Assembly: GCA_947625215.1 (NCBI GenBank)
Contig: CANQNL010000002.1
Coordinates: 4,297-68,296, forward strand
Reading direction: 5' to 3'
Origin: an uncultured Bacilli bacterium
GTDB lineage: Bacteria; Bacillota_I; Bacilli_A; RF39; UBA660
Length of the DNA: 64,000 bases
The first letter of the stretch is position 1. Each line of letters starts with the position of its first letter. Made by a program: the position numbers and the translations under genes. Below the pieces are notes generated by a model that searched no databases, was not told where the DNA came from, and saw only the letters and a list, made by a program, of their open reading frames with translations. This document shows positions 14,430 through 43,316 of the stretch, piece after piece.

Positions 14430-15989
14430 CTAATTTTCTTTTTCTTCGTGATATTCTTGTTCTGTATTGACATTCCAAATATTGTTCTTGTCTTTAACAC
14501 CATTTAAAATATTTTTAACTGTTTCAAATGATGTAACCATTGAATGATCCATATTGTTATATCTGTGTTGTCCATTTCTACCAACACAATATAGATTCTC
14601 ATAATTATTCAAATATTCGATTAATTCATCGATCTTATCATAAGTGTCAAAATATGCTGGATAAGCTTTTTTTACTTTTTCTCTGTGACTATCTAATACA
14701 CTTTCTTCACCTATTATTCCCATTGATACTAATTCTTTAGTGGCAAACTCAATACATTCTTTATCACTCATATTCCAGAATGAATCACCCTCATCACAGA
14801 AATATTCTAATCCTATCCATACTGTATTATCAGGATTTTTTACCATATATGGTGACCAGTTATTGAATATTTGTATTCTTCCTAATTTTACATTTGGTTC
14901 TTGAACATATATCCAACAATCTGGGACGATATTATTTAATGTTTTAATGTCAGTTTCATTTTTTAAGTTTAATTTATTTACTAAAAGTCCTACTGTAACA
15001 AAGTCACGATATGGTAGTCCTTTAGCTATATCGTAATACTTCTTAGGTGCTTTTGTTTTAAAATCTACTACTAAATCTTTAAGTGGCATTGATGATATAA
15101 ATATATCTCCTTTTATTTCTTCTTTTTTATTTTTTACTTCACAAGTGACTGATGAAATTTTGTTTTTGTCATTTTTTATTTCAACTACTTTATATCCTTT
15201 TTTAATTGTTCCGCCCATTTTTTCAAAATCTTTAGCTACTGTTTCCCAAAGTTGACCTGGGCCATATTTTGGATATATAAATTCTTCTATTAAAGATGTT
15301 TCGACCTTTCCATTATTAATATGGAATACCTTTTTAAACATATCTTTTATTATTCCAATAACTGATAAACCTTTTACTCTTTGAGCTCCCCAATCAGCTG
15401 ATATTTCACTAGGATGTCTTCCCCATAATTTTTCAGTATATTTTTCAAAAAACATACTATATAGTTTTTTACCAAATCTATTTATATAGAAATTTTCTAG
15501 TGATGTTTCTGGCTTTTTAACTATAGTGCTTTTTAAATAGCTAAAACCACCAGCTAAAGTTCTACCTAATCCCATATTTTTAAAAGTCTGTAGTTTCATA
15601 CTTATTGGATAATCAAAGAATTTTTTTAAATAATATATTCTTGATACTCTATTTCTTAATAGTAATACTCTATCTTCCTTTTCAGGATCTGGTCCATTTG
15701 GGTTTAGATTCTTTTTTCTTCCTAATTTTTTATCATCGTATGATGGTTTTCCCTGTATTGGCATAATGTTTTTCCAAAACTCCATTACTTCTTCATCTTT
15801 TGAAAAGAATCTATGACCACCGATATCCATTCTATTACCGTTATGTTTTACAGTTCTAGATATACCGCCTATTTCATTACTTTCTTCTAATATAATTACT
15901 TCATAGTCTTTGCTCTGTTTTAAAAGTTCATAACCTGCTGTAAGTCCAGCTGGACCAGCACCTATTATTATTACTTTTTCTTTCTTCAT
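14430..15989 (-). CDS. NAD(P)/FAD-dependent oxidoreductase (amine-oxidase/UDP-galactopyranose-mutase-like fold)
   Basis: The start was moved to [22 protein letters not shown], which has RBS AGGAGTG 5 nt upstream. The track start at 16007 would overlap gtrA. Rossmann GxGxxG motif present. Confidence 0.7.
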
Positions 15990-15999
15990 ACTATCACTC

Positions 16000-16434
16000 C
16001 TACTCAATTACTTTGTATAATACCTTTCTAGCCCCAAAGTTCCATATAAATACTATTATTGTTGATATAATCTTACTTACCATATAAAATAAGGCAATTT
16101 TCTCAGTAAATAACCATAATAACAATGTATCTAAACCTAAACCAATTACTCCAATAATGGCATATATTGTAAATTCACTTATTTTGGAAATACTTACATT
16201 ATTACTAAAGACAAATTTTTTACTTAATATATAATTAACAATTAATCCTAGAGTAAAGGATAAAACATTAGATACAATATAATGAATATGAAACATATCG
16301 GTAAATACATAAAGCATTCCAATGTTTACTATGGCTGCTATACCACCAACAAATCCATATCTTATAAATTGTAAAAATGAATTATTGGTTTGATTTATAA
16401 ATAGCTTATTTATTAATTCAGTCATTTTTATCAC
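16000..16434 (-). CDS. GtrA-family membrane protein (polyprenyl-phosphate-sugar translocation family)
   Basis: 144 aa with 4 TM segments. [25 protein letters not shown] is a typical GtrA N-terminus. Confidence 0.75.
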
Positions 16435-17977
16435 TTCTCTTTACTTTATTATTTAAACTTAAGGCATATATTAATAGCGGAACTGCACAAATTATCTGTG
16501 AATAGACAAATCTATATTCTTCACCAGTTATTAGTAACATAATTACTAAAGTATTGGATAAAACTAAGACAAATGGTAAATAGCTTGTCCATTCTTTTCG
16601 TTTTTTAAATATTGTTATTGCTATTGAAAATACAATTATAAATAAACTAGTTCCAACACTGAAAAATATATAGTTTAATGGTGATGCTGATACAATTTCC
16701 GTATATCTTTCATACCATCCACGAGTGTATTTAACAGCAGCTGATTTAGAATCTAAAATTGTAAAAGTTGTATCAGGGCTTTTAAAATCAACCTGATTTC
16801 TTATCTTCCATATTGGGCTTGTAACATTCATATATGAACGGATATACATATTTGGATATTTTAAGCCATACTTTATATAGAAATTTACAATTTCTTTAGA
16901 ATTTTCACGTCCCCAAATAAAGTAGCGTTTTTTAACTTCTTTATCAAACTTAAAAGGATTGAAATTAGCTGGTCGATATTTTTCTTCCCATTTTTCTTTA
17001 GGTGCTAAATCATCAAGTAATTTTTGATCTTCTTTAGATAACAGAACATTTTGATGATATACATAAGCTATTTGGTTCATTGGGACACCGATAAGTTCGG
17101 AAATTCCACCATCTTTTGACATATTTAAGCTATTATAAACAGGGCCATATAAGATAAATCTAAATAATATTAAACCAATTATCGTAACGGTATAAAATAA
17201 TCTTTTTTCCTTAAAAAATATTATCAAGAGGACAAACATCAAAAATACATTAGCGATACCATTATGTCTAACAAGCATTATGCCTAAGCTTGTTATAATA
17301 AGTAATATTTTGTGACTGTTTTTATTTATCCACTCACCTTTTGTTAGAACTATTTCAATTAATAGTAATGTTCCTAGGAAAAGAAGATAGGAAAATGGGC
17401 CATCTTTTCCAATATACATTGCCATTTTGATAAAAGTAGGATTTAATATAACCAATAATAAGGTTATAATAGTTCCTTTTTTATTAAAGAAATATTTTCT
17501 TAAAAAATAACAGAAATATAATAATATAGCACCTACAATTATCAGTTCAAATATTGCACATGATGCATAGCTATTATATATAAGTGAAGGAAGCTTCATA
17601 AATATAAATGTATGAATGAATGGATGCCAATTAGAATATATGCCACTTTGAACTTCTTTCCATTGACTTGGTGTATCTGCAGCTTTTAAAACAGCTGGAT
17701 AAAAGGCTATAAAAGCAAATAGCAATACTACAAATATAATAAGTCCATATACAATAAGTTCTTTTTTATTAAATTTTTCTTTATTAGTTGGCAATTTTAA
17801 ATTAACAATTTTAGGGAAAATAATGTTTAGAATAATAAAGGAAATTATAAATACTACTATTAAACTAAAATATGAAATGCTTTCTGTAACACTAAAACAA
17901 ATAGCTATAGAAAAATATATTGATAAAAGTGTAATTAAAATTTCTTTTAAAATTTTATTTTTGTTCATTATTTTCAC
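16418..17977 (-). CDS. Polytopic membrane protein, GT-C-like glycosyltransferase candidate (tandem paralog 2)
   Basis: 519 aa with more than 10 TM segments. It is a clear paralog of 17955..19487, sharing blocks SGxYSNWHP, FCYFLRKYFFNKKGTI, NQIAYVYHQ, YMNVTSPIWKI and EWTSYLPFVLVLSN. Confidence 0.45.
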   Translation of the reverse strand: MKIMNKNKILKEILITLLSIYFSIAICFSVTESISYFSLIVVFIISFIILNIIFPKIVNLKLPTNKEKFNKKELIVYGLIIFVVLLFAFIAFYPAVLKAADTPSQWKEVQSGIYSNWHPFIHTFIFMKLPSLIYNSYASCAIFELIIVGAILLYFCYFLRKYFFNKKGTIITLLLVILNPTFIKMAMYIGKDGPFSYLLFLGTLLLIEIVLTKGEWINKNSHKILLIITSLGIMLVRHNGIANVFLMFVLLIIFFKEKRLFYTVTIIGLILFRFILYGPVYNSLNMSKDGGISELIGVPMNQIAYVYHQNVLLSKEDQKLLDDLAPKEKWEEKYRPANFNPFKFDKEVKKRYFIWGRENSKEIVNFYIKYGLKYPNMYIRSYMNVTSPIWKIRNQVDFKSPDTTFTILDSKSAAVKYTRGWYERYTEIVSASPLNYIFFSVGTSLFIIVFSIAITIFKKRKEWTSYLPFVLVLSNTLVIMLLITGEEYRFVYSQIICAVPLLIYALSLNNKVKRSDKND

Positions 17978-19487
17978 CTTCTTTCTTATTTAACCATAAT
18001 GAATATATTAATAATGGAATCATACATATTATTTGGGAATAGACAAATCGGCATTCATAACCGGTAAGTAAAAGCATAATTATTGCTGTGTTTGAAAGAA
18101 CTAAGACAAATGGTAAATAACTTGTCCATTCTTTTTTTCTTTTATTAATAGTAATAAATAATGAAAATACAATTATAAATAAGCTAAAGCCTACTCCAAA
18201 GAAAATATATTTTGAAGTAATAATACCGCTATATTTATCTACATAATTACCAACACGAATACTTACTGGTGAATTTTTGCTACTTCCTATAAACTGAACA
18301 TTATCTTGAATTTTCCATATTGGACTGGTAACATTCATATATGCTCGAATATATTTATGTGGATACTTAAGTCCATATTTGATATAAAAATTCATTATAT
18401 CTTCAAAATTATTAGATACCCAGTTTCTATATGGTTCACCATTATCGTGAGTATATATTCCGTAAGTTTTCCCGTGACCTTTTAAACTATTAAAAGTAGC
18501 TGGTTCATAATATTTATTCCAAGTTTCTTTATCAGCAAATTTATCTAATAATTCTTGTTCATCTTTAGTTATATCGATATCTTGATGATAAACATAGGCA
18601 ATTTGATTCATCAAAACACCCATCATTTCTTCTTTACCACCATTTGGTTTTATATTTAAATTATCATATATCGGGCCATATAAGATAAATCTAAAAGCAA
18701 TTAATAATATACCGGTAATAATGTAAAATTTTTTATTTTTATAAAATATTGATAGAAATAAGAAAATTAGAAATACACTAACAATTCCATTATGTCTAAA
18801 TAGCATAATACCTAAACTGGTTAAAATTAATAATATTTTATTTTTATTGTTTTCTATCCATTTACCTTTTGTTAGAACTATTTCAATTATGAATATTGTT
18901 CCTATAAACATACACCAAGAAAATGGAATATCTTTGTAGATATACATTGCCCATCTTATAACTGCTGGATTTAATATAATTAAAAGCAATGATATTATCG
19001 TACCTTTTTTGTTAAAGAAGTATTTTCTTAAAAAGTAACAAAAATATAGTAAAATTAAACCAATAAACAATAATTGAAATATCGCACACGAAACATAGCT
19101 ATTATGAAACAATGATGGGAGTTTTAAAAATATTAATGTTTCTACTACTGGATGCCAATTAGAATATACGCCACTTTGAACTTGTTTCCATTGAACTTCT
19201 GTATCAGTATTTATTACACCTGGATATGAGGCAATAAATGATACTACTAAAAATATTAAAATAATAAATCCATATATAATAAGTTCCTTTTTATTAAAGT
19301 TTCCTTTATTCTTCTTAAAACTAAAATCGGTTATTTTTGGAAAAATTTTATTTAAAATTATAAAGGAAATTATAAATAAAATAAGCATAGCTATTAATGA
19401 TACTTTTTCAAATACATTATAAGTAATAGCTACTGAAAAATATATTGATAAAAGTATTGTTAACATTTTTTGTAGTATGTTATTCAC
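17955..19487 (-). CDS. Polytopic membrane protein, GT-C-like glycosyltransferase candidate (tandem paralog 1)
   Basis: 510 aa. See the paralog at 16418..17977. Confidence 0.45.
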   Translation of the reverse strand: MNNILQKMLTILLSIYFSVAITYNVFEKVSLIAMLILFIISFIILNKIFPKITDFSFKKNKGNFNKKELIIYGFIILIFLVVSFIASYPGVINTDTEVQWKQVQSGVYSNWHPVVETLIFLKLPSLFHNSYVSCAIFQLLFIGLILLYFCYFLRKYFFNKKGTIISLLLIILNPAVIRWAMYIYKDIPFSWCMFIGTIFIIEIVLTKGKWIENNKNKILLILTSLGIMLFRHNGIVSVFLIFLFLSIFYKNKKFYIITGILLIAFRFILYGPIYDNLNIKPNGGKEEMMGVLMNQIAYVYHQDIDITKDEQELLDKFADKETWNKYYEPATFNSLKGHGKTYGIYTHDNGEPYRNWVSNNFEDIMNFYIKYGLKYPHKYIRAYMNVTSPIWKIQDNVQFIGSSKNSPVSIRVGNYVDKYSGIITSKYIFFGVGFSLFIIVFSLFITINKRKKEWTSYLPFVLVLSNTAIIMLLLTGYECRFVYSQIICMIPLLIYSLWLNKKEGENNEQK

Positions 19488-19502: not shown

Positions 19503-20345
19503 TTATTTAAATCTAGTTAATATATGATTTCCAGCATTGGTATGAATTATTTCACCGGAAATACAATTTGAAAAATCGGAAATTAGAAACAAAACTGTTT
19601 CAGCAACTTCTTCTGGAACAAAATATCTTTCACAATTTTCTTTACCAGAATATAAATCACCATTTTTATCTATACTAGTCATTTCCGTAGCTGTAACTCC
19701 AGGAGCTACCCCATTAACTCTAACTCCTTTGCGGTAAAACTCCGTTGATAGTCCTTTCACTAAACTATTAATGGCTACTTTTGTTAAACCATAAGGTATA
19801 TTGTCACAATAATCACCTCGCTCGGATGAAATGAAAATTATATTTGCCCCTTTTTGATCTATAGCTAAATATTTTCTTAAAAAATGCTGGGTAAAAAAGT
19901 AACTACCGTATAAATTTGTTTCCATTTGATTTTTAAAGCTTTCTTCGGTAACATCGAAAAAGCTTTTTTCGTGTAATGAAATACCAGCATTATTAATTAA
20001 ACAGTCTATTTTGCCATATTTTTCATAGATTTTATCAATGATATCTTTTCCTTTAGCAAAATCTTTAATATCAAAAACCATATATTCACTATTTTCGCCA
20101 ATTTCTTTTGTAGTTTGGGAAAGCTCTTTTTCATTTCTTCCTGTTATAATTACTTTAGCGCCTTCGCTTGCTAATTTTTTCGCTATTGCTTTTCCTAAAC
20201 CTTTTCCACCACCAGTGATTACTACTACTTTGTCAGTTAAACAATGTTTCATATCACTTTGAATAATTTCAGCTTTAATTACTTTTGGTTTATGATCATA
20301 AGCAATATATTTAAATGCTCTTTTGAAATATGTTCCTAAACTCAT
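19503..20345 (-). CDS. Short-chain dehydrogenase/reductase (SDR)
   Basis: 280 aa with TGGGKGLGKAIA cofactor motif, NNAG, and a Y-x-x-x-K region (PYGLTKVA). Confidence 0.8.
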   Translation of the reverse strand: MSLGTYFKRAFKYIAYDHKPKVIKAEIIQSDMKHCLTDKVVVITGGGKGLGKAIAKKLASEGAKVIITGRNEKELSQTTKEIGENSEYMVFDIKDFAKGKDIIDKIYEKYGKIDCLINNAGISLHEKSFFDVTEESFKNQMETNLYGSYFFTQHFLRKYLAIDQKGANIIFISSERGDYCDNIPYGLTKVAINSLVKGLSTEFYRKGVRVNGVAPGVTATEMTSIDKNGDLYSGKENCERYFVPEEVAETVLFLISDFSNCISGEIIHTNAGNHILTRFK

Positions 20346-20361: not shown

Positions 20362-21903
20362 CTATATTTTTATATTTTTCTTTTTATTTATGAGATAATA
20401 AATTCTCTCCTTAACTTGTTTATATTGTTCGGTTTTAAATGTAAATAGGACAAAAATTACCATTACAATTCCAGTTATTAAAATGCCATCAACTATAAAT
20501 CCTAAAATACCTTGTATTGGAATGATATTGATAACAAAACCACTTATGATAAATGCAATAGCAGTTACAAAAAAGTAATATGCGTATGTTTTATAATATC
20601 TTAAGGGTGACGTTCCAAAAGCATTTTTATGTATAAAATATGGTTCATAACTAGTTAAAATAAATAATCTTGTTATAGATGTAGCTATTAAAACACCAAA
20701 CATTCCCATATAATTTACTAATATTATAGATAAAATGACATTCGCTAAAGCTGTTATAATTGGAACAAAACGGCCTTTTCTAAATAAGCCTAAAGTATTT
20801 CTATATGTATAATTAACATACCTCATACCATTTATATAAAAATCAAGTCCCAAAGCTATACTTATGCTTAAGCCTAAAATATAATTATTTCCTAACCAAA
20901 TAGTTACAAAATCATTTATAAGTAAGGTCATTGCGATAGATATATAGCCATATACAATAAACGATATAAACATGATCTGATAAAAGACACTTTCTTTTTT
21001 TGCTTTTTCTTTTATCGTATTTAAATTTCCTATACTTGATGTTATTGATTTAAACACAGAATCAAGTAAATTTTTTATCGAAGATGTTATAATGGTATAA
21101 TTTGATAAAAGACCAACGGCTCCTACACCTAAAAATGTCGAAATTATAATATTATCAGTACCTGTTGATAGTACATATCCTAACTGATAGAAAAATAATG
21201 ATTTAATATCGTTGAAAATACTTTTTTGTTCAGCTTTATCTAACTTTTTATATTCCTTTTCTTTGATATATGGGTACATTTTATCAGCTTTTTTAGAAGC
21301 TATTATATTATCTAACAATGTCGCTCCAATTTGTAATAATAAATAGACAATATAATTATGTGTAATTAATAAAAGTATTATTTGTAATATGTCTAGTACA
21401 ATAGATATTACAAGCGAAATAAGACTTAATATATAATCTTTTTGATGCCCAGTTATTATCGACCTTTTATACACAAAAAAGTACGACATTGTTGAATTTA
21501 TTAAAAATAGGATATAAATAAATATTAAATTTTCACTAATATTTGGTTGTTCTTTAATAAAGTAATGTAAGAAAGGAATAAGACACAAACCCATAACTAA
21601 AATAACTATGCCAATTATAAAATAGACTTTTTTATAGAAATGAATTAAAGTTTTTATTCTTTCTCTATCATCTTCAGCTATTGGTTTATACATTTTATAT
21701 ATTATTGCCGTACCAATTCCAAGTTCGGCAAATGATAACATTGTTAAAACATTGGTAAATAAACCATTAACACCTAAATATTCAGTGCCTAGTGTTTGTA
21801 TAAATATTGTTCGGCAAATAAAACTTATAATAATGTATATAACTTTTGAAATAATGGTGACACTTGCATTTCTTGCTGAATTTACAGTTCTTGATTCTTC
21901 CAT
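20362..21903 (-). CDS. wzx: Wzx-type (MOP superfamily) polysaccharide flippase
   Basis: 513 aa with about 14 TM segments. The N-terminal ARNASVTIISKVIYIIISFICRTIFIQTLGTEYLGVNGLF is typical of this family. Confidence 0.7.
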   Translation of the reverse strand: MEESRTVNSARNASVTIISKVIYIIISFICRTIFIQTLGTEYLGVNGLFTNVLTMLSFAELGIGTAIIYKMYKPIAEDDRERIKTLIHFYKKVYFIIGIVILVMGLCLIPFLHYFIKEQPNISENLIFIYILFLINSTMSYFFVYKRSIITGHQKDYILSLISLVISIVLDILQIILLLITHNYIVYLLLQIGATLLDNIIASKKADKMYPYIKEKEYKKLDKAEQKSIFNDIKSLFFYQLGYVLSTGTDNIIISTFLGVGAVGLLSNYTIITSSIKNLLDSVFKSITSSIGNLNTIKEKAKKESVFYQIMFISFIVYGYISIAMTLLINDFVTIWLGNNYILGLSISIALGLDFYINGMRYVNYTYRNTLGLFRKGRFVPIITALANVILSIILVNYMGMFGVLIATSITRLFILTSYEPYFIHKNAFGTSPLRYYKTYAYYFFVTAIAFIISGFVINIIPIQGILGFIVDGILITGIVMVIFVLFTFKTEQYKQVKERIYYLINKKKNIKI

Positions 21904-21918: not shown

Positions 21919-23112
21919 TTAATTAATGATTTTATTTATTTTTTTAATAATTTTATAGAGGAAAAAACGAGGTTTTAAAAATATTTTGCTTGGTAAAGAC
22001 ATTTTATGTTCCTTTAAATACTTTATTAATGCTCCACTTTGTATATCGTCGGATAGTAGAAATTTATATTTGAAAAATTTTTTGTTTTGATGATAAACTT
22101 GTAAATCAAATACATTTTTATAATCCTCTAATTTATTTATTGTCTCCAAAACTAATAATGTTCTCACACATTTTTGACAACAAGAACAATTATATCCATT
22201 ATCTTTTGGATTAATACAAACATTTAAGTATTTTTTTGCAATATCCCAATCATTTATTTTTTCGATTTTTTCAGCCCTTGTATATTGACAGCCATCTATA
22301 ACTAATTCAAATATTTCAGTAGATATCAAATGTGGCATATAATTTTCGGCATAACCAGCCATATCTATATCCCGTTCGGAAAGAGAATACTTGGAATTAT
22401 CATCATATGATGAGCTACTAGATGCAACATACCTTTTTATATATTTTTGTAAACAAAGAATACAAGAATATATAGCTAAATAACCAACTTGTGTCTCTCC
22501 TACCTTATGTGTAAATGCATGCAAATTGGAATCGATTAAATATACAGGCAAGCCTAATTCATCAGCTGCACCTTTGTTTAATTTAGCTCTATCAAGCCAA
22601 ACTTGCCTTGTTTTTTCATTTTCATAATCGCCGTGAGTCCCACAGTTTGCGAAAAATAAACTATTTATTCTAAAATTTTTATCAGTAGTTTCTATAAAAT
22701 TGTCATATATGGTAGTAAGGCAATCTACTCCACATGATATGCCAGTTCCGATTAAATTAGCTGGTCCTTTATCTGCTACTTTGAAACCATCTACAGTAAA
22801 ATTAACTTTCTTAGTATAATCAGAAAAACCATCAAATATATTCATTAAATAATGTGTAATATTATGATAGAAACGTGGAGAAATTTTTCCTTCTATATGC
22901 ACATCTTGGTGATAGTGCATTCCTAAATAAAGTGGAACTAAAGTAAAGGCATCATATACATCATCTGTTAACATATCAGCATTTTTATTTTCAACAGCTA
23001 TCCACATTGTCTTTTCTTCAAATGGATTTTCAAATTCAGTAACATTAAAATCAGCTTTTAAATATGTCCAACCATTGTTTTCTTCTTTTCTTAAATTGCT
23101 TATTACAAACAT
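21919..23112 (-). CDS. Hypothetical protein (Cys-rich, function unknown)
   Basis: 397 aa. GTGISCGVDC (a degenerate PP-loop-like SGGxDS?) and CSCCQKCVRT are noted. I recognise no family. Confidence 0.5.
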   Translation of the reverse strand: MFVISNLRKEENNGWTYLKADFNVTEFENPFEEKTMWIAVENKNADMLTDDVYDAFTLVPLYLGMHYHQDVHIEGKISPRFYHNITHYLMNIFDGFSDYTKKVNFTVDGFKVADKGPANLIGTGISCGVDCLTTIYDNFIETTDKNFRINSLFFANCGTHGDYENEKTRQVWLDRAKLNKGAADELGLPVYLIDSNLHAFTHKVGETQVGYLAIYSCILCLQKYIKRYVASSSSSYDDNSKYSLSERDIDMAGYAENYMPHLISTEIFELVIDGCQYTRAEKIEKINDWDIAKKYLNVCINPKDNGYNCSCCQKCVRTLLVLETINKLEDYKNVFDLQVYHQNKKFFKYKFLLSDDIQSGALIKYLKEHKMSLPSKIFLKPRFFLYKIIKKINKIIN

Positions 23113-23128: not shown

Positions 23129-24865
23129 TTATTTTTTTATAATTTTTTTTAATCTATTTATGTTTTTTTCTCCTATTACATTTTTTATCATTTGTTTACC
23201 AGAAAAAGTTTGCACTAAATTATTCATTGTATTTAAGGCATCACTTTCTAGTTTTGCATCAGTAAAAATTTCAAAGATAATTGATTTTTCATTATCATTT
23301 ATAAATCTTTTAATATTAGTTAAATATTCTTCTTTATTAGAGGCACTTAAATAATCAAAGCCTAAATCTTCGGCATAATCTTTAACTAATTTTTTTGATT
23401 TATTACCATTATGCCCATCGGCAGCAATAAATTTTTCGGCCATTCCACTATCTAATTTACTTGCCCTATGTCTAGCAAGATGAAATTCTGCACCACAACC
23501 ATTATTAATTACAATTAACCTTAAATTGTTTTGAATTTCTCTATTTCCAAGTGAATTCATATCGTAGAAAAATGCTAAATCACCAACAATTCCATATACC
23601 TTTTTTGATGGATTATTTAATGATGCGCCAATTAAGGAAGAAACATTGCCATCAATTCCAAAACCACCAGTGTTGCTATAACAGAATAATTTTTGTTTAG
23701 GACTAAAATAATTCCAAGATCTTAATGTGTTTAAAATTCCTAAATGAAGAATACTGTTTTCAGGTAATAAATCAATGGTATTTTGAGCTACCCATATATT
23801 AGAAAATGGGAAATCTATTTCTTTTAATTTTTTATTTACCATTTCTTGTTCTGTAAGCCATTTTTGATAATACTCATTATTAGTAAAAACCTCTTTGCTA
23901 TTATTGTATTTTTTGAAAAACTCAAGCTCATCCATTTCAAAAACATAACGTAATTTTTTAAATGGATCTCTAATTTCACCATCAGGATTAACTCGCCATA
24001 CTGTTTTTGGATTTAATGATATATAAGCTCCAGACACATCACCAATATGGATTAAAGTATCAATGTTTTTTAATGGTGAAAAATATCCATTTTGATCACA
24101 TATTAAATTAGGCATAATTTTATATTTACCGTGATAATTACTTGTATGGTCACATAAAACTACAGCATTATATTTTTGGCAAAATTCTTCAACCTCTTTT
24201 GTTAAATTATCACTCCATTTTTTATGAGAACCTACAAAAATAGCTACATTATTAGAATTAATTAATGGAATATTGTCATTACTTTCAATTCTATCTATTT
24301 TTCTTTCTGAAGGAATCTCTGGAACATCAAAATTGTTGCTATATGTTGAGACTAAGTTGATATGTACTGGTCCACCACCGTTATGTCTGCATTCCAATAA
24401 AGCTTTATTTATATTTAGATTACATGCCCATCTATCTTCTTCGGAATGAACAGTATCAGCTAAAATGCTTACTTTAACCATATCATTTAATGGATTACTT
24501 CTATCTATTACTTGCGCAATATGCTGTCCGATTCGGCCAGGGTGCTGGGCACCAGTTATCGCAATTATTGGTAATTTTCGATAATAAGCTTCGGTCAAAC
24601 CCGAAATGTAATTTCTTGAAGCTGTTGCTCCCGTACAGGTTAAAACTACTGGTTCCCCGCTTTCGGTAGCTAAACCACAAGCCATATAACAAGCTGATCT
24701 TTCATCTACACAAGAATAGATTTCAAAAAACTCATCATTTTGAATACTAGCTAAAAAACTAATATGAGTTGTTCCTGGACTGGCAATAACCTTTTTAATA
24801 TTGTGTTTTTTAAGTAAACTAATTAAGATTTGCGCATTAATCTCATCAGTATATTTATTAGCCAT
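23129..24865 (-). CDS. Thiamine-diphosphate enzyme, MenD-like (left-operon copy)
   Basis: 578 aa. SPGTTHISFL...VDERSACYMACGLATESGEPVVLTCTGATASRNYISGLTEAYYRKLPIIAITG follows the MenD/SEPHCHC-synthase N-terminal pattern. A C-terminal ThDP motif GDLAFFYDMNSLG...NNGCG is present. Paralog of 41577..43316. Confidence 0.7.
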   Translation of the reverse strand: MANKYTDEINAQILISLLKKHNIKKVIASPGTTHISFLASIQNDEFFEIYSCVDERSACYMACGLATESGEPVVLTCTGATASRNYISGLTEAYYRKLPIIAITGAQHPGRIGQHIAQVIDRSNPLNDMVKVSILADTVHSEEDRWACNLNINKALLECRHNGGGPVHINLVSTYSNNFDVPEIPSERKIDRIESNDNIPLINSNNVAIFVGSHKKWSDNLTKEVEEFCQKYNAVVLCDHTSNYHGKYKIMPNLICDQNGYFSPLKNIDTLIHIGDVSGAYISLNPKTVWRVNPDGEIRDPFKKLRYVFEMDELEFFKKYNNSKEVFTNNEYYQKWLTEQEMVNKKLKEIDFPFSNIWVAQNTIDLLPENSILHLGILNTLRSWNYFSPKQKLFCYSNTGGFGIDGNVSSLIGASLNNPSKKVYGIVGDLAFFYDMNSLGNREIQNNLRLIVINNGCGAEFHLARHRASKLDSGMAEKFIAADGHNGNKSKKLVKDYAEDLGFDYLSASNKEEYLTNIKRFINDNEKSIIFEIFTDAKLESDALNTMNNLVQTFSGKQMIKNVIGEKNINRLKKIIKK

Positions 24866-26203: not shown

Positions 26204-27229
26204 TTATATATCCATAGATTTTTTTAAATAATCTTTAGCCTTTTCTTTTTCTATTTTCAATATTTTATGACTTTCATTATAATCTTTGTTTAAATTATCA
26301 GCTGTTAGTCTTCCTTTATAAGTTTTGTCTTTTAATTTTAACAATGAAAGTAATTGTTCAATTCTGGTATACATTTTTTCTTCATTATCATTGCGTTCAT
26401 ATACTGTAAATGGTGTATCAAATAATACAGCAAATACACAAGCGTGAAATGAATCGGTACAAACTAAGAAAGCATTTTTTTCAAGATATAAAAATTCCTC
26501 TGGGCTTAAACTATAAAATTCACTATCTTTATCTAAAATATTAATAATTTTAGCGTTATTTTGTTTCGCAAATTTTTTTAAATCGTCCTTTATTTTTTTA
26601 TCTTGCTTACCAAGAAAATATGTTAATATATATTTTTCTGGAATATTCTTAGGTTTAACTATTATTTGTTCCCATTCTTCTTTAGAAAGTAACATTGTTG
26701 GATCAACTAAAACCTCTGATTTGATTTTTAAATCTTGTAGTATTTGTTTTCCACTTTCTTCTCTTACAGAAACACTTTTAAAATTACTCAAATATTTTTT
26801 ATACTCTTCTTTTACAGAATCTTTTATTTTTGATATTCCAAAACTAGCTGCATAAGAAATATTTTTTTCTTTAGGTGAATATTTAAGTAGGGTCATATCC
26901 TTATTTACACTTGCAAAATTATAATTCCATACTTGATCACTGCCAACTATTAAATAATCATAATGTGTATGTATTTTTTCTAATTTAAAATAGAAAATTG
27001 TATTTAAATATTTCTGAGAAAATTTTTTTAATTTTTTATATTTTAATTTATCTTCCTTAGAAATAGTGATTTTTGTTTTTATGTTTCTTTTTATATCTTT
27101 TAATGACATATAATTAACTGTCTCGACTGTAACTCCAATATCTTCTAAAAAACATTTTAAAGCATAATTTTGAAGACGATTACCATAGTTTATATAACCA
27201 TTTAATGTGACAATTCCGACTTTTTTCAT
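26204..27229 (-). CDS. Polysaccharide pyruvyl transferase family protein
   Basis: 341 aa with MKKVGIVTLNGYINYGNRLQNYAL and GSDQVWN blocks. Paralog of 39033..40154. Confidence 0.7.
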   Translation of the reverse strand: MKKVGIVTLNGYINYGNRLQNYALKCFLEDIGVTVETVNYMSLKDIKRNIKTKITISKEDKLKYKKLKKFSQKYLNTIFYFKLEKIHTHYDYLIVGSDQVWNYNFASVNKDMTLLKYSPKEKNISYAASFGISKIKDSVKEEYKKYLSNFKSVSVREESGKQILQDLKIKSEVLVDPTMLLSKEEWEQIIVKPKNIPEKYILTYFLGKQDKKIKDDLKKFAKQNNAKIINILDKDSEFYSLSPEEFLYLEKNAFLVCTDSFHACVFAVLFDTPFTVYERNDNEEKMYTRIEQLLSLLKLKDKTYKGRLTADNLNKDYNESHKILKIEKEKAKDYLKKSMDI

Positions 27230-29481: not shown

Positions 29482-31338
29482 TTATTTACTATCACGCACC
29501 ATTAATTTATATAATTTAAAATAATCAATTTTGATTTTAAATAACTTTTTTAAAAATCCTACTTTCCAATTACTATCTAGTAAATCTTTTATTAATCTTT
29601 TAGGTCTAAAGATATAATAAATTAAGCTATGAGGATTTGCTAAATAAAACGTTTTGGTATCTAAGTAAGTAATACTTCCAAATAATTTAATATCATTTAA
29701 TGTGGGATATAATCCAAGTTTTTTAATGCCAAACGAGGCTATATAATTATCTATATTTATAACATTTCTATCAATAGCACTATAATTTTTTACAAAATCT
29801 AAAGCACCATTTTGAATTAAACGAAAGATTTCATTTTCCCTTGAAGAATATTCATATTTTGCTAAAACCGGGTTGATTCCATTAGAAGTTTTTTCATACT
29901 TAATTGTTGTACCGTGATTAGCAGAAAACAAATTTTCAAATAGGCTTATAAAAGCTCTAATTTGTGTTTCATCTGATTTATAATTAAACAAATACCCATA
30001 TTGCTTATTTCCTTTTTTTATGTTTTTATAAGCATTTGATAATTGACCTATATAATACCCTGTGATATCAGCTGATATTTTATTTTGAATGCAGGCATTA
30101 GTAAGTGCTGATTGCATTGAACCAGACCAACCAATATCTGAAATAGCTAATTTGCCATTAAAATCTTGCTCTTTTAAATATGAAAGTAAATTGATTTCCT
30201 CTTTTTTAGCGTTTTCTTTAATATCATTTTTAATTTCATTAAATAAATCTTCAAAATTAAAAATATTTTTGATATTTTCCTCTTTATTTGTTTTATATTT
30301 ATTTAAAAAATCTTTATAATTATTAATATCTAAGCCTACATTAATAAAGAAACTTTCTAAATCAATTACTCTTCGCATTTTACAAATTTCAAATACTTCT
30401 TCTAAAGTATTTATATTTTTAAGCAAACTAACTCTGGTACTTCTTCTTGATACATATAAATATTTTGTTTCTATATCAGTATCATTTATTAAATCAAAGG
30501 CTTTTTTTAATAAAGCTCCTTCTCTAGATAGGAAAAATATTTTATTTATTTTTTCTTTTTTAACATTTTCTTTTAACCATTTTGAATATCCAAGTAAAAG
30601 TATTCCTAATGTTTCATAACCTATTTTGTAATAAATATCTTTATCAGGTAGATTATTATTAATAAAATTTTTAATAATATTATCTTCTAAAGAATTTATT
30701 TTGTAGTCTTTATAATATCTAAGTTTATTTATTTTTTTAGGAATTAATATTGATTTAATCCTATAAAATTTTGGCATTAAATAATCAGCTCTTTTAGAAT
30801 CTCCTATATGTAATAATTCATTAGATTTAATATTTAATTTTTTTAATATATAAGGATATACTTTTCCACAATGTTTATTTAGTTTTATATCATTAGATAA
30901 AAACATATAATCATAGTTGATATTGGCATTTTTTAAAATTTGTTTTAATGTATCTTTTTCAAGATACATATCTGAAGTAATAATAATTTTTTTATTCTTT
31001 TCTTTTGCATATTTATATATAGGATAAAAATCTATATTTTTTTGGCAAAATTTTAATTCTAATTCTATTTCTAATTTTTTTATTTCTTCTTTATTTTTAA
31101 TATCAATTAACTTATAAATATCATTTATATCTGGTTCTCTATGGTTAGTTAAATCTCTAGCTTTTCTTTCGGCATTAATTCTAATTTCTTTAAAGTTTGT
31201 ATGATTATATTTTTTTCCGATTAAATCAAATATGTCAGCCGGATTTTCTATATTTCTTTTAATTAATGTATCGAAAACATCAAAAGATATATAGTCATAT
31301 TTATCTATTTGTTTTTTTATTTTTTTATAATCATACAT
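29482..31338 (-). CDS. Large HAD-superfamily hydrolase-domain protein (COG5610-like)
   Basis: 618 aa with an N-terminal HAD motif I (ISFDVFDTLIKR) and a later GDS motif. The function in the glycan pathway is unknown. Confidence 0.6.
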   Translation of the reverse strand: MYDYKKIKKQIDKYDYISFDVFDTLIKRNIENPADIFDLIGKKYNHTNFKEIRINAERKARDLTNHREPDINDIYKLIDIKNKEEIKKLEIELELKFCQKNIDFYPIYKYAKEKNKKIIITSDMYLEKDTLKQILKNANINYDYMFLSNDIKLNKHCGKVYPYILKKLNIKSNELLHIGDSKRADYLMPKFYRIKSILIPKKINKLRYYKDYKINSLEDNIIKNFINNNLPDKDIYYKIGYETLGILLLGYSKWLKENVKKEKINKIFFLSREGALLKKAFDLINDTDIETKYLYVSRRSTRVSLLKNINTLEEVFEICKMRRVIDLESFFINVGLDINNYKDFLNKYKTNKEENIKNIFNFEDLFNEIKNDIKENAKKEEINLLSYLKEQDFNGKLAISDIGWSGSMQSALTNACIQNKISADITGYYIGQLSNAYKNIKKGNKQYGYLFNYKSDETQIRAFISLFENLFSANHGTTIKYEKTSNGINPVLAKYEYSSRENEIFRLIQNGALDFVKNYSAIDRNVINIDNYIASFGIKKLGLYPTLNDIKLFGSITYLDTKTFYLANPHSLIYYIFRPKRLIKDLLDSNWKVGFLKKLFKIKIDYFKLYKLMVRDSK

Positions 31339-32420: not shown

Positions 32421-32454
32421 TTTTTCCACCTACTATTTTTACAAATTTTATAAT

Positions 32455-32493
32455 TAATAATGTGATTAAAAAAATATCTCTGAATATTTAATT
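32455..32493. repeat. IRL: left 39-bp perfect inverted repeat of the recombinase cassette
   Basis: TAATAATGTGATTAAAAAAATATCTCTGAATATTTAATT is the exact reverse complement of 33617..33655. Confidence 0.95.
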
Positions 32494-32520: not shown

Positions 32521-33462
32521 TTATGCCATCATATATTCAACTAAATTTTCAATGGAAGTTTTTTTAAATTCATCAGATGGGTGGGCGTATAAATTAATGG
32601 TAATATCAACACTTGAATGACCTAATATTTCACTTAAAGTTTTAAAATCCATTTTTGATTCAAGTGATCTAGTAGCAAAAGTATGTCTTAATGTATGAAA
32701 ATTAGTATATTTAAGATTAGCTTTCTTCATTATTCTTTCAAAAAACCTTCTAAATTGTCTTGGATCATATAAAGATTTGCTTTTTGATAAAATAAAATCT
32801 TCATTTGAACCTTTAAATTTTAATAAATAGTCTATAATAAAATTAGAAATTGGTATTGTTCTAATTGAAGTTTCACTTTTAGGTGTACTTTCAATTAAAA
32901 TGGTTTTTGATTTTATATTAGGGTTTTCATTATAAATTCTTTCAATTGTCCTGTTAACTGTTACAGTTTTATTATTAAAATCAATATCTTCCCATTTAAG
33001 ACCACAAACTTCTCCTATACGAAGTCCAGTATAAAGGGCAAGCAATAAACAAGCTTTTCTAATATTTGGCTTTTGATATAATACTTTTTCTAATTTTATT
33101 TGTGATTCTTTTGATAAAACACATACTTGTTTCGCTCTTTTTCGGATTTTTAAATTTGTTAAATCAATGTTTTTACACATATTTTTTTTAACACCAGTTT
33201 TTAAAGCAGCCTTAATAATATAAAGTAAAGTTTTTTGAACTGAAATAGATACTTTTTTCTCATTTAAGCTATTAAAATATAAAATAATATCATTAGCAGT
33301 AACTTTCTTTGCTCTTTTGCCAGCAATATTACCTTTAATATATCTTTCTATTAATTGTTCATACTTTTGCCTTGATTGAATTTTTATATCATTTTTTGTT
33401 TTTACCCACATATTAACGACATCTAAAAAACTTTTTTTCTCCCATAACATTAACTTATGCAT
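32521..33462 (-). CDS. Tyrosine site-specific recombinase (phage-integrase family)
   Basis: 313 aa from MHKLMLWEKK, with RBS AAGGAGG 7 nt upstream. Catalytic pattern: YTGLRIGE (Arg), HTLRHTFAT (H-x-x-R) and LGHSSVDITINLYAH (His/Tyr). The track's 38-codon N-terminal extension is rejected. Confidence 0.85.
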   Translation of the reverse strand: MHKLMLWEKKSFLDVVNMWVKTKNDIKIQSRQKYEQLIERYIKGNIAGKRAKKVTANDIILYFNSLNEKKVSISVQKTLLYIIKAALKTGVKKNMCKNIDLTNLKIRKRAKQVCVLSKESQIKLEKVLYQKPNIRKACLLLALYTGLRIGEVCGLKWEDIDFNNKTVTVNRTIERIYNENPNIKSKTILIESTPKSETSIRTIPISNFIIDYLLKFKGSNEDFILSKSKSLYDPRQFRRFFERIMKKANLKYTNFHTLRHTFATRSLESKMDFKTLSEILGHSSVDITINLYAHPSDEFKKTSIENLVEYMMA

Positions 33463-33512
33463 ATTTTTACCTCCTTTATTTTGCCCCATATTTACTTCTT
33501 TTTTCTTCCAAA

Positions 33513-33541: not shown

Positions 33542-33580
33542 AATTTATGAATTTTCGACAAATTTATAAAAAACATAGTA

Positions 33581-39032: not shown

Positions 39033-40154
39033 ATGAAAAAAATAGGAATAATAACTTTTAGTAGAGCTCAAAATCATGGAGCTACTTTGCAGTGTATGGC
39101 ACTACAAAAAACAATTGCTAATATTGTTAATGATAGTGATGTAAAAGTAATAGATTATCGAAATAAATATGTAGAGCATTCTTATAAAGTGTTTAGTATT
39201 GATACAAGCAATATAAAAACTTGTATAAGAACTATTATATCTTCTTTAGTATTTTTTAAGAAAAATTTTATTAGAAATAAAAAATATAAAAAATTTATTC
39301 TAACTCATCTTAATTTTACTAAAGAATGTACTACTAAAAAGCAAGTAGAGGAAATTACTAAAGACTTTGATTATATTATTGTTGGTAGCGATCAAGTTTG
39401 GAATCCATTTTTTGCTAAAAGTATTGATGATGTCTATTTTTTGAATTTTAAAACACCTGCTAAGAAAATATCTTATGCCGCCAGTCTTGGCTTTAATAAA
39501 ATGGAAGATAAAAAGTTATATAAAAAGTTATTAGGAAATATCGATAATATTTCTATTAGAGAAAAAGATGGATGTAAGATAGTTTCTAATATTTTAAACA
39601 AAGATATAAAAAACACATTAGATCCGACATTACTTCTTACAAGAGAAGAATGGGAAAATTATTTCAATAAAAATAATACACTAACAGATAAATATATATT
39701 TGCTTATGTGCCTGGTAATTTGGAAGGCTATGAGGAATTAGTAAATACTGTTTCTGATAAACTTAACAAAAAGGTAGTCAATATAAGAAAAAGAGATACA
39801 GGGATTAGAAATATACTAAAAAATGCCTTTACATCCACTCCTGATGAATTTCTAAATTATATTTATAATGCTGATATTGTGGTGACAACATCGTTTCATG
39901 CGGTTGTATTTGCATTAATATTTGAAAAGAAATTTTGGGTATTAGCACCTAAAAATAATAGTAGTAGAATTAACAATTTACTTGAAAAGTTGAATTTATC
40001 TTATAGAAGTGTAGATAATATTGAAAAATTAAAACAAGTGGATTTGATGAAAGATATAAATTATAAAGATGTAAAAATTAAATTAGAAGAACTAAGACAA
40101 GATTCTTTAAATTGGCTAACAAAAATGCTGACTGAAAGTGATAAAAATGAATAG
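39033..40154 (+). CDS. Polysaccharide pyruvyl transferase family protein
   Basis: 373 aa with MKKIGIITFSRAQNHGATLQCMAL, GSDQVWNP and TTSFHAVVFA. Confidence 0.7.
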   Translation: MKKIGIITFSRAQNHGATLQCMALQKTIANIVNDSDVKVIDYRNKYVEHSYKVFSIDTSNIKTCIRTIISSLVFFKKNFIRNKKYKKFILTHLNFTKECTTKKQVEEITKDFDYIIVGSDQVWNPFFAKSIDDVYFLNFKTPAKKISYAASLGFNKMEDKKLYKKLLGNIDNISIREKDGCKIVSNILNKDIKNTLDPTLLLTREEWENYFNKNNTLTDKYIFAYVPGNLEGYEELVNTVSDKLNKKVVNIRKRDTGIRNILKNAFTSTPDEFLNYIYNADIVVTTSFHAVVFALIFEKKFWVLAPKNNSSRINNLLEKLNLSYRSVDNIEKLKQVDLMKDINYKDVKIKLEELRQDSLNWLTKMLTESDKNE

Positions 40155-41556
40155 GGAAAGAAAACTATTTAAAAATACAATAATAATATCAATTGGTAAA
40201 ATTTGTACCCAGTTTGTTTCTTTCTTACTTTTACCACTATATACAGGCTATTTATCAACAACTGAATATGGAATTGTTGATTTGGTAAATACATTGGTTA
40301 CATTATTGATGCCTATAGTATCATTTCAACTTTATCAAGGAGTGTTTAGAGAATTAATTGATAGTAGAAATAATGAAGAAAATAAAGGTAAAATAATATC
40401 TACTGGAACTACTTTAACGACAATGCAATGTATAATATTTTTAATTTTATTCTTGGTATTTTCTCCATTTATAAATAATGATTATAAATTACTGTTAGTT
40501 GTCAATTTAATCATCTGTATTTATTTGACATTATTTCAACAAATAGCTAGAGGATTTGGAGATAATACTAGATATTCTATTGGATGTGTCATTGCTAGTC
40601 TTTGTACAATAGTATTAAATGTTTTCTTCATTGTAGGTTTGCATTTAGGAGCAACAGGTATGTTACTGGGTACAATGCTTGGGCAACTAATTGGAATAAT
40701 ATATTTTATTTGTTCATTAAAATTAATTCGTTACATTGGTTTTAATAAATATGATGTTAGCATAAGAAAAAAATTATTAAAATATTCAATTCCACTAATA
40801 CCAAATGCTATATCTTGGTGGCTAATTAGTGCTTCTGATGCAATGATTGTGTCACTTATGTTAGGAGTTGATATGAATGGTGTATTAGCTGCTTCCTTAA
40901 AATTTTCTACTATACTTACAGTATTATATGGAATGTTTGATATGGCTTGGATTGAATCTATATCGGCTAATATAAATGATAAAGATATAGATGTATATTT
41001 TAATAAGACTATGAATATCATCTTAAAGTTGTTTTTATCATTATGTATAGGAATTATTGCTTGTATGCCATTTGTATTTCCAATAATGATTAATAGTGCT
41101 TATAGTGCTGGATATGTGTTAATTCCATTTACTATACTTTCAGCATTATTTAATGTCATTCAGGGTATGGTTATTGTTGTTTTTGCAGCAAAAAAGAATA
41201 CTGGTTTTGTTTCTATAACTTCAGGTCTAGCTGCAATCATAAATATTGCGATAGATATATTATTGATTAAATTTATTGGATTATATGCTGCTGTTATTTC
41301 AACTTTAATAGCATATATAGTTATAGCTATTACAAGATATATTGGAGTAAACAAAAAATATTTTAAAATAAAAATTGAAAAAGCATTATGTCTAAGTGGC
41401 TTTGCTATATTAACTTTGGTAATAAGTTGTTATTACATAAATAATATATATCTTAACATTTTATCATTAGGTGTAGCCATTATATATGCAATATTATTAA
41501 ATAAAAATTCAATTACTACTTTAATAAAATTAGTAAAACATAAATTTGGTAATTGA
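40138..41556 (+). CDS. wzx: Wzx-type (MOP superfamily) flippase
   Basis: 472 aa with 12-14 TM segments. LFKNTIIISIGKICTQFVSFLLLPLYTGYLSTTEYG is typical. An alternative start is at 40147. Confidence 0.75.
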   Translation: MIKMNRERKLFKNTIIISIGKICTQFVSFLLLPLYTGYLSTTEYGIVDLVNTLVTLLMPIVSFQLYQGVFRELIDSRNNEENKGKIISTGTTLTTMQCIIFLILFLVFSPFINNDYKLLLVVNLIICIYLTLFQQIARGFGDNTRYSIGCVIASLCTIVLNVFFIVGLHLGATGMLLGTMLGQLIGIIYFICSLKLIRYIGFNKYDVSIRKKLLKYSIPLIPNAISWWLISASDAMIVSLMLGVDMNGVLAASLKFSTILTVLYGMFDMAWIESISANINDKDIDVYFNKTMNIILKLFLSLCIGIIACMPFVFPIMINSAYSAGYVLIPFTILSALFNVIQGMVIVVFAAKKNTGFVSITSGLAAIINIAIDILLIKFIGLYAAVISTLIAYIVIAITRYIGVNKKYFKIKIEKALCLSGFAILTLVISCYYINNIYLNILSLGVAIIYAILLNKNSITTLIKLVKHKFGN

Positions 41557-41576: not shown

Positions 41577-43316
41577 ATGTACACAAGTGAAAGAAATATT
41601 CAAATATTGATAAGTGTTTTAAAACATAATAATATAAAGAAAATAATTGTTAGTCCAGGAACAATGAATCTTTGTTTTGTTGGTAGTGTTAAAAATGATC
41701 CATTTTTTGAAGTCTATTCTTGTGTTGATGAAAGAGCTGCTTGTTATATGGCAAGTGGACTTGCTGTAGAGAGTGGAGAGCCAGTTGTATTATCTTGTAC
41801 TGGAGCAACTGCCTCAAGAAATTATATGTCTGGATTAACCGAAGCATATTATAGAAAAATACCAATTTTAGCAGTAACTTGTGCACAACATTTTTGTAGA
41901 ATTGGAAACAATGTGCCACAATCTATTGATAGAACTGCAATACCAAACGATATTGCTAATATAAGTGTTCAAATACCTAAAATAAATAGTATGGATGATG
42001 AAATCGGAAGTAATTTATTGATAAATAAAGCAGTATTAGAACTTAAACATAATGGTGGAGGACCAGTTCATATTAATTTAGAAGCACAAATTGAGAGTAA
42101 TAAATTTGAAGTTTCTGAATTACCACAAACTAGATTTATTGATAGAATTGAAATTTATGATAAATTTCCTGAACTTAAAAATAAAAAAATAGGTATTTTT
42201 GTTGGTAATCATAGAATTTGGGATAAACAATTGATTAAAGAGGTAGAAAAATTTTGTGAATTATACAATGCTGTAGTATTATGCGATCATACAAGTAATT
42301 ATAATGGCAAATATAAGATTATGCCAAATATTATATTGGATCAAGACAATTATATAAGTCCTTTAAATGATTTTGATATATTAATTCATCTTGGTGATAT
42401 ATCAGGAGCTTATCTTAAATTAAGTATGAAAGAGGTCTGGCGAGTTAATCCTGATGGAAAATTAACAGATACTTTTTCAAAATTAAGATATGCATTTGAA
42501 ATGAGAGAACTTGATTTTTTCCAAAAATATAATGCTGTTGGAAATAAGAAAATTAATACTAGCAACTATTTTGAGTTAAAAAAAGAATTTGATGAATTAG
42601 AAGAAAAGGCTTTAAATTGTGATATCCCATTTTCAAACATTTGGATGGCACGTAATACAATTAAATTGCTACCTAAAGATGGTTACTTACATTTGGCTAT
42701 TTTAAACTCATTAAGATCATGGAATTATTTTACAAGAGAAGATAATCTATATTGTTTTTCAAATACTGGAGGTTTTGGAATCGATGGCTCTTTATCCACA
42801 ATAATAGGATCTTCACTTGTGAATCCAAATAAAATTTACTTTGGCATTGTAGGTGATTTAGCATTCTTTTATGATTTAAATTCATTAGGTAATAGACATA
42901 TAGGCAATAATATTAGAATTATGTTTATAAACAATGGTTGTGGAACAGAGTTCCATAACTATAGTCATCCAGCATCTTCTTTAGGAAGTATGACAACAAA
43001 CTATATAGCTGCTGATGGACATTTTGGAAATAAGTCAAGAAGTTTAGTTAAACATTATGCTGAAGATTTAGGATTTGAATATATAAGTGCTGAAAATAAA
43101 GAAGAATTTAAAAAATACATAAAACATTTTACTTCGAACGATAAATATGATAAACCAATTATTTTTGAAGTATTTACTAATTCTGATGATGAAAGCAATG
43201 CTTTAAAAACAATAAGAAATTTAAAAAAGTCAACCATTGGAGTTATAAAAAATGCTGCCAAAAAAATACTAAATGAAAATGCAAAAGCTAAAATTAAAAA
43301 ACTTATAAGAAAATAA
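41577..43316 (+). CDS. Thiamine-diphosphate enzyme, MenD-like (right-operon copy)
   Basis: Start set at MYTSERNIQIL, with RBS AAGGAGAG about 8 nt upstream. VDERAACYMASGLAVESGEPVVLSCTGATASRNYMSGLTEAYYRKIPILAVT and GDLAFFYDLNSLG are present. Collinear with 23129..24865. Confidence 0.7.
   Translation: MYTSERNIQILISVLKHNNIKKIIVSPGTMNLCFVGSVKNDPFFEVYSCVDERAACYMASGLAVESGEPVVLSCTGATASRNYMSGLTEAYYRKIPILAVTCAQHFCRIGNNVPQSIDRTAIPNDIANISVQIPKINSMDDEIGSNLLINKAVLELKHNGGGPVHINLEAQIESNKFEVSELPQTRFIDRIEIYDKFPELKNKKIGIFVGNHRIWDKQLIKEVEKFCELYNAVVLCDHTSNYNGKYKIMPNIILDQDNYISPLNDFDILIHLGDISGAYLKLSMKEVWRVNPDGKLTDTFSKLRYAFEMRELDFFQKYNAVGNKKINTSNYFELKKEFDELEEKALNCDIPFSNIWMARNTIKLLPKDGYLHLAILNSLRSWNYFTREDNLYCFSNTGGFGIDGSLSTIIGSSLVNPNKIYFGIVGDLAFFYDLNSLGNRHIGNNIRIMFINNGCGTEFHNYSHPASSLGSMTTNYIAADGHFGNKSRSLVKHYAEDLGFEYISAENKEEFKKYIKHFTSNDKYDKPIIFEVFTNSDDESNALKTIRNLKKSTIGVIKNAAKKILNENAKAKIKKLIRK

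Follow-up and report, generated by a model that had tools for sequence, protein, structure and literature searches.

To our knowledge, natural Stetter-type enzymes that depend on thiamine diphosphate (ThDP) are very few, namely MenD, PigD and their relatives. MenD (SEPHCHC synthase) is the prototype of the Stetter-like addition, and its own acceptor carries an enolpyruvyl ether (PMC2914249). In the glycan locus for yersiniose A, a ThDP carboligase (YerE) is found together with a reductase (YerF). YerE is similar to acetolactate synthase (ALS), its probable acyl-anion donor is pyruvate, and its 1,2-addition to a nucleoside diphosphate (NDP)-4-keto sugar yields a C-branched sugar. CsaB, WcaK and EpsO, all of family PF04230 (PS_pyruv_trans), make a final ketal. 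According to PMC9723277, which cites Kaszowska et al. (2013), the Plesiomonas shigelloides O37 O-antigen contains glucose ether-linked to (2S)-4-oxopentanoic acid, "D-lenose", and according to PMC10609480, which cites Shashkov et al. (2008), 2,4-dihydroxypentanoic acid forms 2-ethers on O-antigen sugars of Providencia alcalifaciens, e.g. Man4OR in O31. The O37 cluster consists of wzx (O37-11), a 940-bp unannotated gap, a menD-like gene encoding 569 amino acids (aa; O37-12), and, 11 bp downstream, a wcaK-like gene encoding 372 aa (O37-13) (PMC9723277); orf12 and orf13 were linked to lenose there by annotation, without mechanism or experiment. Here we describe two MenD-like ThDP enzymes, M-left and M-right, encoded in a 64,000-nucleotide stretch of contig CANQNL010000002.1 from an uncultured Bacilli bacterium (assembly GCA_947625215.1; the whole stretch is called the window below). 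They extend the cassette so far linked to lenose by annotation only to a new phylum and to a reductase-bearing variant. On balance we lean, though not strongly, towards M being the ThDP carboligase of a mobile glycan-tailoring cassette that would make a C5 keto- or hydroxy-acid ether.

The window contains two divergent Wzx/Wzy-type glycan loci, the left at ~13.2-32.4 kb on the minus strand and the right at ~33.7-47.9 kb on the plus strand, and each carries one copy of M. The genes in question are given below, where P denotes a PS_pyruv_trans subfamily, F the Wzx flippase, M the MenD-like enzyme, and S and E two alternative reductases.

19503..20345, minus strand: S, classical short-chain ketoreductase, present in the left locus only (adh_short 3e-49; FabG/BudC-like)
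20362..21903, minus strand: F-left, Wzx-type flippase (Polysacc_synt, cassette position)
21919..23112, minus strand: accessory 397-aa protein between M-left and F-left (no match in Pfam or NCBIfam)
23129..24865, minus strand: M-left, MenD-paralogous ThDP enzyme, 578 aa (P0001; Pfam, TIGR00173, AlphaFold2/Foldseek)
26204..27229, minus strand: P-left, PS_pyruv_trans transferase of the M-linked subfamily (PF04230 4e-40, 138.8 bits; cluster 1)
39033..40154, plus strand: P-right, PS_pyruv_trans transferase of the same M-linked subfamily (PF04230 1e-32, 114.2 bits)
40138..41556, plus strand: F-right, Wzx-type flippase directly upstream of M-right (Polysacc_synt)
41577..43316, plus strand: M-right, paralog, 579 aa (P0002; alignment to M-left, TIGR00173, tree)

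The original prediction, made from the letters of the window, took the two M proteins for collinear paralogs closer to MenD than to ALS, and both points were borne out. The two open reading frames (ORFs) are present and align over their full length, collinearly, with 338 of 579 residues identical (58%) and 74% positives, and the motifs quoted at the time are found in both translations. M-right might instead start at a TTG at 41553; its homologs begin at the ATG. The best NCBIfam model for both is MenD (TIGR00173), with 171.4 bits for M-left and 149.3 bits for M-right, whereas ALS models reach at most 58 bits against ALS cut-offs of more than 500, and on these scores the likeness to MenD rather than ALS is correct. 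In Pfam, TPP_enzyme_N matched with 73 and 62 bits and TPP_enzyme_C with 26 and 21 bits (left and right), the last slightly below the 21.9-bit cut-off. The proteins belong to the ThDP decarboxylase/carboligase superfamily (PF02776 plus PF02775), with E55, D429 and N454-N455 invariant, so that the catalytic Glu is intact, as is the ThDP motif, whose loss would have spoken against the original prediction. The best matches by sequence in PDB were MenD structures (1e-26). An AlphaFold2 model of M-left, computed from a 44-sequence family alignment (mean predicted local distance difference test score, pLDDT, 88.6; predicted template modelling score, pTM, 0.87), retrieved only MenD among its top 50 Foldseek matches in PDB, from five species; M and MenD (PDB 2X7J, 3HWX, 5EJ4, 9E9B) share the three-domain ThDP fold. 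MenD is thus both the best family and the best fold in the profile and structural comparisons that had been proposed, and the family identity of M is established.

In the family tree, P0001 and P0002 fell into different well-supported subclades, with P0002 clustering with proteins of other organisms, so the two loci did not arise by a recent local duplication. A very long branch lay between M and the one true MenD that the tree included; the separation from MenD is carried by bit scores instead. Against the TIGR00173 equivalog cut-off of 244.2 bits, the 171.4 and 149.3 bits of the two M copies, the only MenD-like matches of the genome, fall short. In ten other M-bearing genomes, TIGR00173 scores were 351-432 bits for true MenD, 140-177 bits for M and at most 81 bits for other ThDP enzymes, and three of the ten carried a true MenD alongside M. 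These separate score groups indicate that M is a distinct paralogous family able to coexist with MenD. It had also been claimed that no other menaquinone gene lies near the two copies. This holds for the neighbourhood and, by our searches for men genes, for the whole genome (1.2 Mb, 92% complete), in which isochorismate synthase (TIGR00543) and MenB (TIGR01929) had no match.

We mapped active-site residues onto MenD of Escherichia coli (Ec), Bacillus subtilis (Bs), Listeria monocytogenes and Staphylococcus aureus and counted alignment columns over 44 family members. Glu55, Gln118, R382 (Ec R395/Bs R409), F461 (Ec F475/Bs F490) and the GDL...NN ThDP motif were invariant (44/44). In contrast, three arginines by which MenD recognizes its substrates are replaced across the family. 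Ec R33 (Bs R32) is replaced by T and Ec R107 (Bs R106) by Q, each in 42 of 44 sequences, and mutagenesis of BsMenD has shown Arg32 and Arg106 to be critical for isochorismate recognition (PMC2914249). Ec R413, equivalent to Bs R428 and to R399 of the Mycobacterium tuberculosis (Mtb) enzyme, has become T (35) or V (9), and the surrounding MenD motif SNRGxxGIDG reads SNTGGFGIDG in M. In BsMenD, Arg428 serves mainly in 2-oxoglutarate binding and Arg409 binds both substrates (PMC2914249), and recognition of alpha-ketoglutarate by MtbMenD depends critically on Arg399 (10.1101/841569). Loss of this Arg fits a small donor. The same loop carries, two residues beyond Ec R413, an invariant F402 where MenD of E. 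coli has S416, and this Phe may narrow the donor pocket too. Ec I474 corresponds to an invariant Glu (E460). Candidate residues that would bind the acceptor carboxylate and protonate the alpha-carbon are R382, Q118 and F461 together with the newly invariant E460, D121, R122 and H485. Overall, the residue pattern fits an enzyme that kept the catalytic core for Stetter-type chemistry and changed both substrates, the donor for a smaller one. Arg107 is conserved in more than 94% of MenD homologs, among which Fries et al. (2019, PMC6618250) distinguished a community with Gln at this position whose substrate scope was unknown; judged by its residues, the M family fits that community.

Homologs of M are numerous. 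More than 100 metagenomic clusters of ~580 aa are 56-69% identical to P0001, and in a set of species-representative genomes, 494 of 532 pattern-matched stretches encode an M relative. The 80 best loci come from Bacillota, Bacteroidota, Synergistota, Spirochaetota, Pseudomonadota, Verrucomicrobiota and Saccharibacteria. For gene content, loci were drawn from the 80 best matches, all at least 48% identical, and ORFs were called and clustered in 86 loci, the resulting figures depending on the ORF-calling and clustering thresholds; 48 loci have at least 6 kb on each side of M (full-flank loci), and for three further homologs the gene context was read with Pfam labels. A conserved cassette emerged, with the order P-F-M-(S/E) in Bacillota and F-(S/E)-M-P in Bacteroidota and Pseudomonadota. 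P was detected in 41 of the 48 full-flank loci by BLAST cluster, and in more by hidden Markov model (HMM), with 47 of 66 P genes at most 2 kb from M. The M-linked P proteins form one BLAST/HMM subfamily of PS_pyruv_trans and reach only 30-33 bits on the CsaB equivalog model; those of the window belong to cluster 1 with 66 M-linked homologs, and a PDB sequence search made with a P protein gave no match. Both P proteins of the window exceed the PF04230 gathering threshold of 25.3 bits, and they are the only two PF04230 genes of the genome, each paired with an M, in agreement with the original prediction that each copy shares its operon with a pyruvyl transferase. The survey of homologs extends this pairing well beyond the window and ties M functionally to the pyruvyl transferase.

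The most frequent immediate neighbours of M are the reductases S, a classical short-chain dehydrogenase/reductase (SDR) of ~282 aa, and E, an extended SDR of ~360-372 aa. They are nearly mutually exclusive, since both occur together in 2 loci and one or the other in 38 of the 48 full-flank loci. S of the left locus scored under every equivalog cut-off and is the ortholog of the SDR that flanks M in other loci (cluster 4, 39 loci). An RmlB-like dehydratase cluster was found in ~10 of 86 loci. The family of the 397-aa protein occurred in 7 of the 86 M loci, each time in the same orientation and at a distance of 9-2760 bp from M, with invariant GTGxxxGxD and NCxxCxKC motifs; this Cys-containing protein may be an accessory tailoring enzyme, acting for example on the new carboxylate. 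In the locus of one relative (L003:1-1629), a second PS_pyruv_trans of a different subfamily is paired with an FrhB_FdhB_C/Fer4 protein, and such FrhB-type pairing of pyruvyl transferases is recurrent and unrelated to M. Conservation of the cassette is thus established by gene content.

From these data and the known chemistry of MenD and PF04230 we infer which donor and acceptor the cassette uses, in what order its steps run and what it makes. P, using phosphoenolpyruvate (PEP), would place an enolpyruvyl ether on a sugar hydroxyl of the lipid-linked repeat unit. M would then decarboxylate pyruvate to hydroxyethyl-ThDP and add it, by a MenD/Stetter-type 1,4-addition, to the enolpyruvyl group. 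The bond would form at its terminal CH2, which is the beta position of an alpha,beta-unsaturated carboxylate, and the result would be a lenose-type sugar 2-O-ether of 4-oxopentanoic acid (+114 Da). Where S or E is present, it would reduce the 4-oxo group to the 2,4-dihydroxypentanoic acid ether (+116 Da), and the co-inherited Wzx would finally export the decorated unit. MenD and PF04230 chemistry combined thus predict a sugar 2-O-ether of a 4-oxo acid that can be reduced to a 2,4-dihydroxy acid, and both are in the literature. The carbons also add up, with PEP supplying C1-C3 of 4-oxopentanoate and pyruvate the C2 acetyl unit. For the window, we predict the keto form for the right locus, which has no reductase, and the hydroxy form for the left locus with its SDR at 19503-20345. 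The proposed reaction is, like that of MenD, a Stetter-like 1,4-addition to an alpha,beta-unsaturated carboxylate, but M sits in Wzx/Wzy glycan loci, and its proposed donor and acceptor are pyruvate and an enolpyruvyl-sugar. Similarly, the M-linked P proteins resemble CsaB, WcaK and EpsO as strong PF04230 matches (1e-32 to 4e-40), but they form their own subfamily, with an enol ether for C-C extension as the proposed product in place of the final ketal.

The P. shigelloides O37 cluster is a close parallel. There, as in the window, a MenD-like gene and a PF04230 gene adjoin each other next to wzx within a locus of the Wzx/Wzy type, and the gene order, F-( )-M-P, is that of the cassette form of Bacteroidota and Pseudomonadota. 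O37 has no annotated reductase and its product keeps the 4-oxo group, whereas the left locus of the window adds a ketoreductase; the O37 host is a gammaproteobacterial O-antigen producer, and that of the window a gut Bacilli bacterium with a small genome. The O37 gap (12483-13421 in the supplementary table of PMC9723277) coincides with the place of S or E in the Bacteroidota/Pseudomonadota form of the cassette, and its length is close to that of an S gene. Remains of a reductase gene may lie there, which would agree with a product that keeps its ketone. A literature search returned no Providencia O31 gene cluster and no characterised glycan Stetter-type enzyme. The original prediction had called the chemistry unexplored for this type of organism; this stands for Bacillota, and for biochemistry in general, with the reservation that O37 lenose (PMC9723277) is a genetic and structural precedent.

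Several other explanations have to be weighed against this scheme. The original prediction held that each glycan may carry a C-branched or keto-acid-derived substituent made by carboligation, with YerE as precedent. The keto-acid-derived substituent is the best reading of our data, and the C-branched sugar is disfavoured because genes for keto sugars are absent and the conserved partner of M is P. In a YerE-type reaction M would add an acyl anion to an NDP-4-keto or other keto sugar, and the SDR would reduce the side-chain ketone as YerF does. A ThDP enzyme with an adjoining reductase does mirror YerE and YerF, and MenD variants are known to perform 1,2-additions. However, no NDP-sugar 4,6-dehydratase or other keto-sugar-forming gene is present in the window loci or their flanks, the RmlB-like cluster is confined to the minority of loci given above, and M is MenD-like and far from ALS/YerE-like families (at most 58 bits). 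Such a reaction would also leave unexplained a partner that uses PEP and appears obligatory, and the one linked structure, that of O37, is an ether-linked C5 keto acid and not a branched sugar. We consider a YerE-type role quite unlikely. It is improbable as well that M works in the same cassette with the 2-oxoglutarate donor of MenD, which would transfer a succinyl-type C4 unit and yield an ether of 4-oxoheptanedioic acid or some other dicarboxylic group. In favour of this, MenD is the nearest family, and R382 is kept, whose equivalent contributes to 2-oxoglutarate binding in BsMenD; on the other side, the main binding Arg (Bs R428/Ec R413/Mtb R399) is T or V in 44 of 44 sequences, the invariant F402 follows two residues further in the same loop, and the O37 substituent is C5, not C7.

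The order of the steps might be reversed, M with or without the reductase first making a C5 acid, either free or phosphorylated (Stetter addition onto PEP would be one way), which a PF04230-like enzyme would then transfer. PEP is also an enolpyruvyl Michael acceptor, and an altered donor is conceivable for a P subfamily so distant from CsaB (30-33 bits). Nevertheless this order seems unlikely, as the PF04230 mechanism is an addition-elimination at C2 of an enol phosphate, for which a saturated 2-phospho acid would be no donor, and no kinase or activating gene is conserved in the cassette. As for MenD proper, a menaquinone role of M is ruled out by the sub-cut-off scores, the lost Arg residues, the absence of MenB and isochorismate synthase, and the coexistence with true MenD. 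To a bona fide SEPHCHC synthase that lies in glycan loci by chance we therefore give next to no credence, even though MenD is the best family and fold match and one database source labels a homolog SEPHCHC synthase: both isochorismate Arg residues and the 2-oxoglutarate Arg are gone, genomes with true MenD carry M additionally, and the glycan-locus context is conserved in at least seven phyla. A phosphonate route by PEP mutase and phosphonopyruvate decarboxylase was rejected, as the loci are without PEP mutase and the 578-aa M is MenD-like, not Ppd-like. In the window, genes for an NDP-sugar dehydratase, a PEP mutase or the men pathway are missing from both glycan loci.

Against the proposed carboligation of an enolpyruvyl ether itself stand a number of points. 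All characterised PF04230 enzymes known to us make cyclic pyruvate ketals and not free enol ethers, so that release of an enolpyruvyl intermediate by P is an assumption of the scheme. Pyruvate was taken as the donor from just the loss of one Arg and the O37 carbon count, and the function of the M family as a whole was read from sequence and gene context. The AlphaFold2 model is a monomer, and the ThDP active site sits at the dimer interface. About 7 of the 48 full-flank loci have no strong P match, and ~10 of the 48 have no reductase at all, the right locus of the window belonging to this reductase-less minority. Finally, O37 orf12 and orf13 (GenBank MN115824) were placed with M and P by their published description (length, MenD and pyruvyl-transferase matches, adjacency, position next to wzx), and for the best match of orf13 the text and the supplementary table of PMC9723277 disagree.

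The window has a G+C content of 26%, and its nearest relatives are metagenome-assembled genomes of uncultured Bacilli from the rabbit gut; the flank at 1-13 kb carries housekeeping genes. In the order of transcription the two loci read as follows.

Left locus, first genes: GT2, HAD-like protein, GT4, GT2, then PS_pyruv_trans 26204-27229
Left locus, after PS_pyruv_trans: polytopic membrane protein, M-left, 397-aa protein, Wzx, SDR
Left locus, end: two DUF6020 proteins, GtrA, FAD oxidoreductase, UDP-glucose dehydrogenase
Right locus, first genes: DUF4422, GT4, GT4, Wzy_C, GT4, then PS_pyruv_trans 39033-40154
Right locus, after PS_pyruv_trans: Wzx, M-right, PMT_2, UbiA, VanZ, LCP protein

By its sequence, the polytopic membrane protein of the left locus is probably the Wzy polymerase. 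The 618-aa protein of the same locus (29482-31338, minus strand) has a weak N-terminal HAD-hydrolase match alone (1e-4). At 14430-19487 on the minus strand, the left locus carries two DUF6020 paralogs, GtrA and an FAD oxidoreductase of the amine-oxidase/GLF type, and at 43383-45783 on the plus strand, the right locus carries a PMT_2 GT-C-like protein and a UbiA-family prenyltransferase. Membrane genes of this kind at the locus ends are typical of polyprenyl-phosphate-sugar pathways and suggest an extracytoplasmic step of side-chain addition. Beyond the right locus, a ParB homolog (47989-49761, minus strand) has a C-terminal extension of ~380 residues, Pro/Gln/Glu-rich and of low complexity, which contains an internal duplicated segment, FEPQQTP(S/E)FSVPE(P/S)N(S/N)FNQPVNPV(I/V)EPIAPIPEQPQ.

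Between the two loci lies a 42-nt inverted repeat (98% complementary) with arms at 32452-32493 and 33617-33658, each glycan locus having one of them in its leader. It brackets a tyrosine recombinase gene (32521-33576, minus strand; Phage_integrase, 1e-29). The 1.2-kb segment so bounded is a candidate invertible element carrying its own recombinase, and could switch expression between both glycan loci.

Collectively, our results outline a wider picture that we offer tentatively, as a possibility rather than an expectation. M may be a new natural Stetter-type family that extends glycan enolpyruvyl ethers by a pyruvate-derived acetyl unit, the missing route to lenose and 2,4-dihydroxypentanoic acid ethers, spread horizontally across at least seven phyla including many gut commensals, and probably the Gln-107 community of MenD homologs; in the bacterium studied here, the two glycans may alternate by way of the recombinase-bearing invertible segment. 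A glycan-directed Stetter-type enzyme, if confirmed, would be new to enzymology and of use in biocatalysis, for the making of 1,4-dicarbonyl ethers. It would give a function to a large orphan family now mis-annotated as SEPHCHC synthase and would explain the origin of lenose and of 2,4-dihydroxypentanoic acid ethers. The presence or absence of a reductase provides a simple testable rule from genotype to structure. From the cassette one would expect an acidic keto- or hydroxy-acid epitope on the surface of many gut Bacillota and Bacteroidota, which would be relevant to phage receptors and immune recognition.

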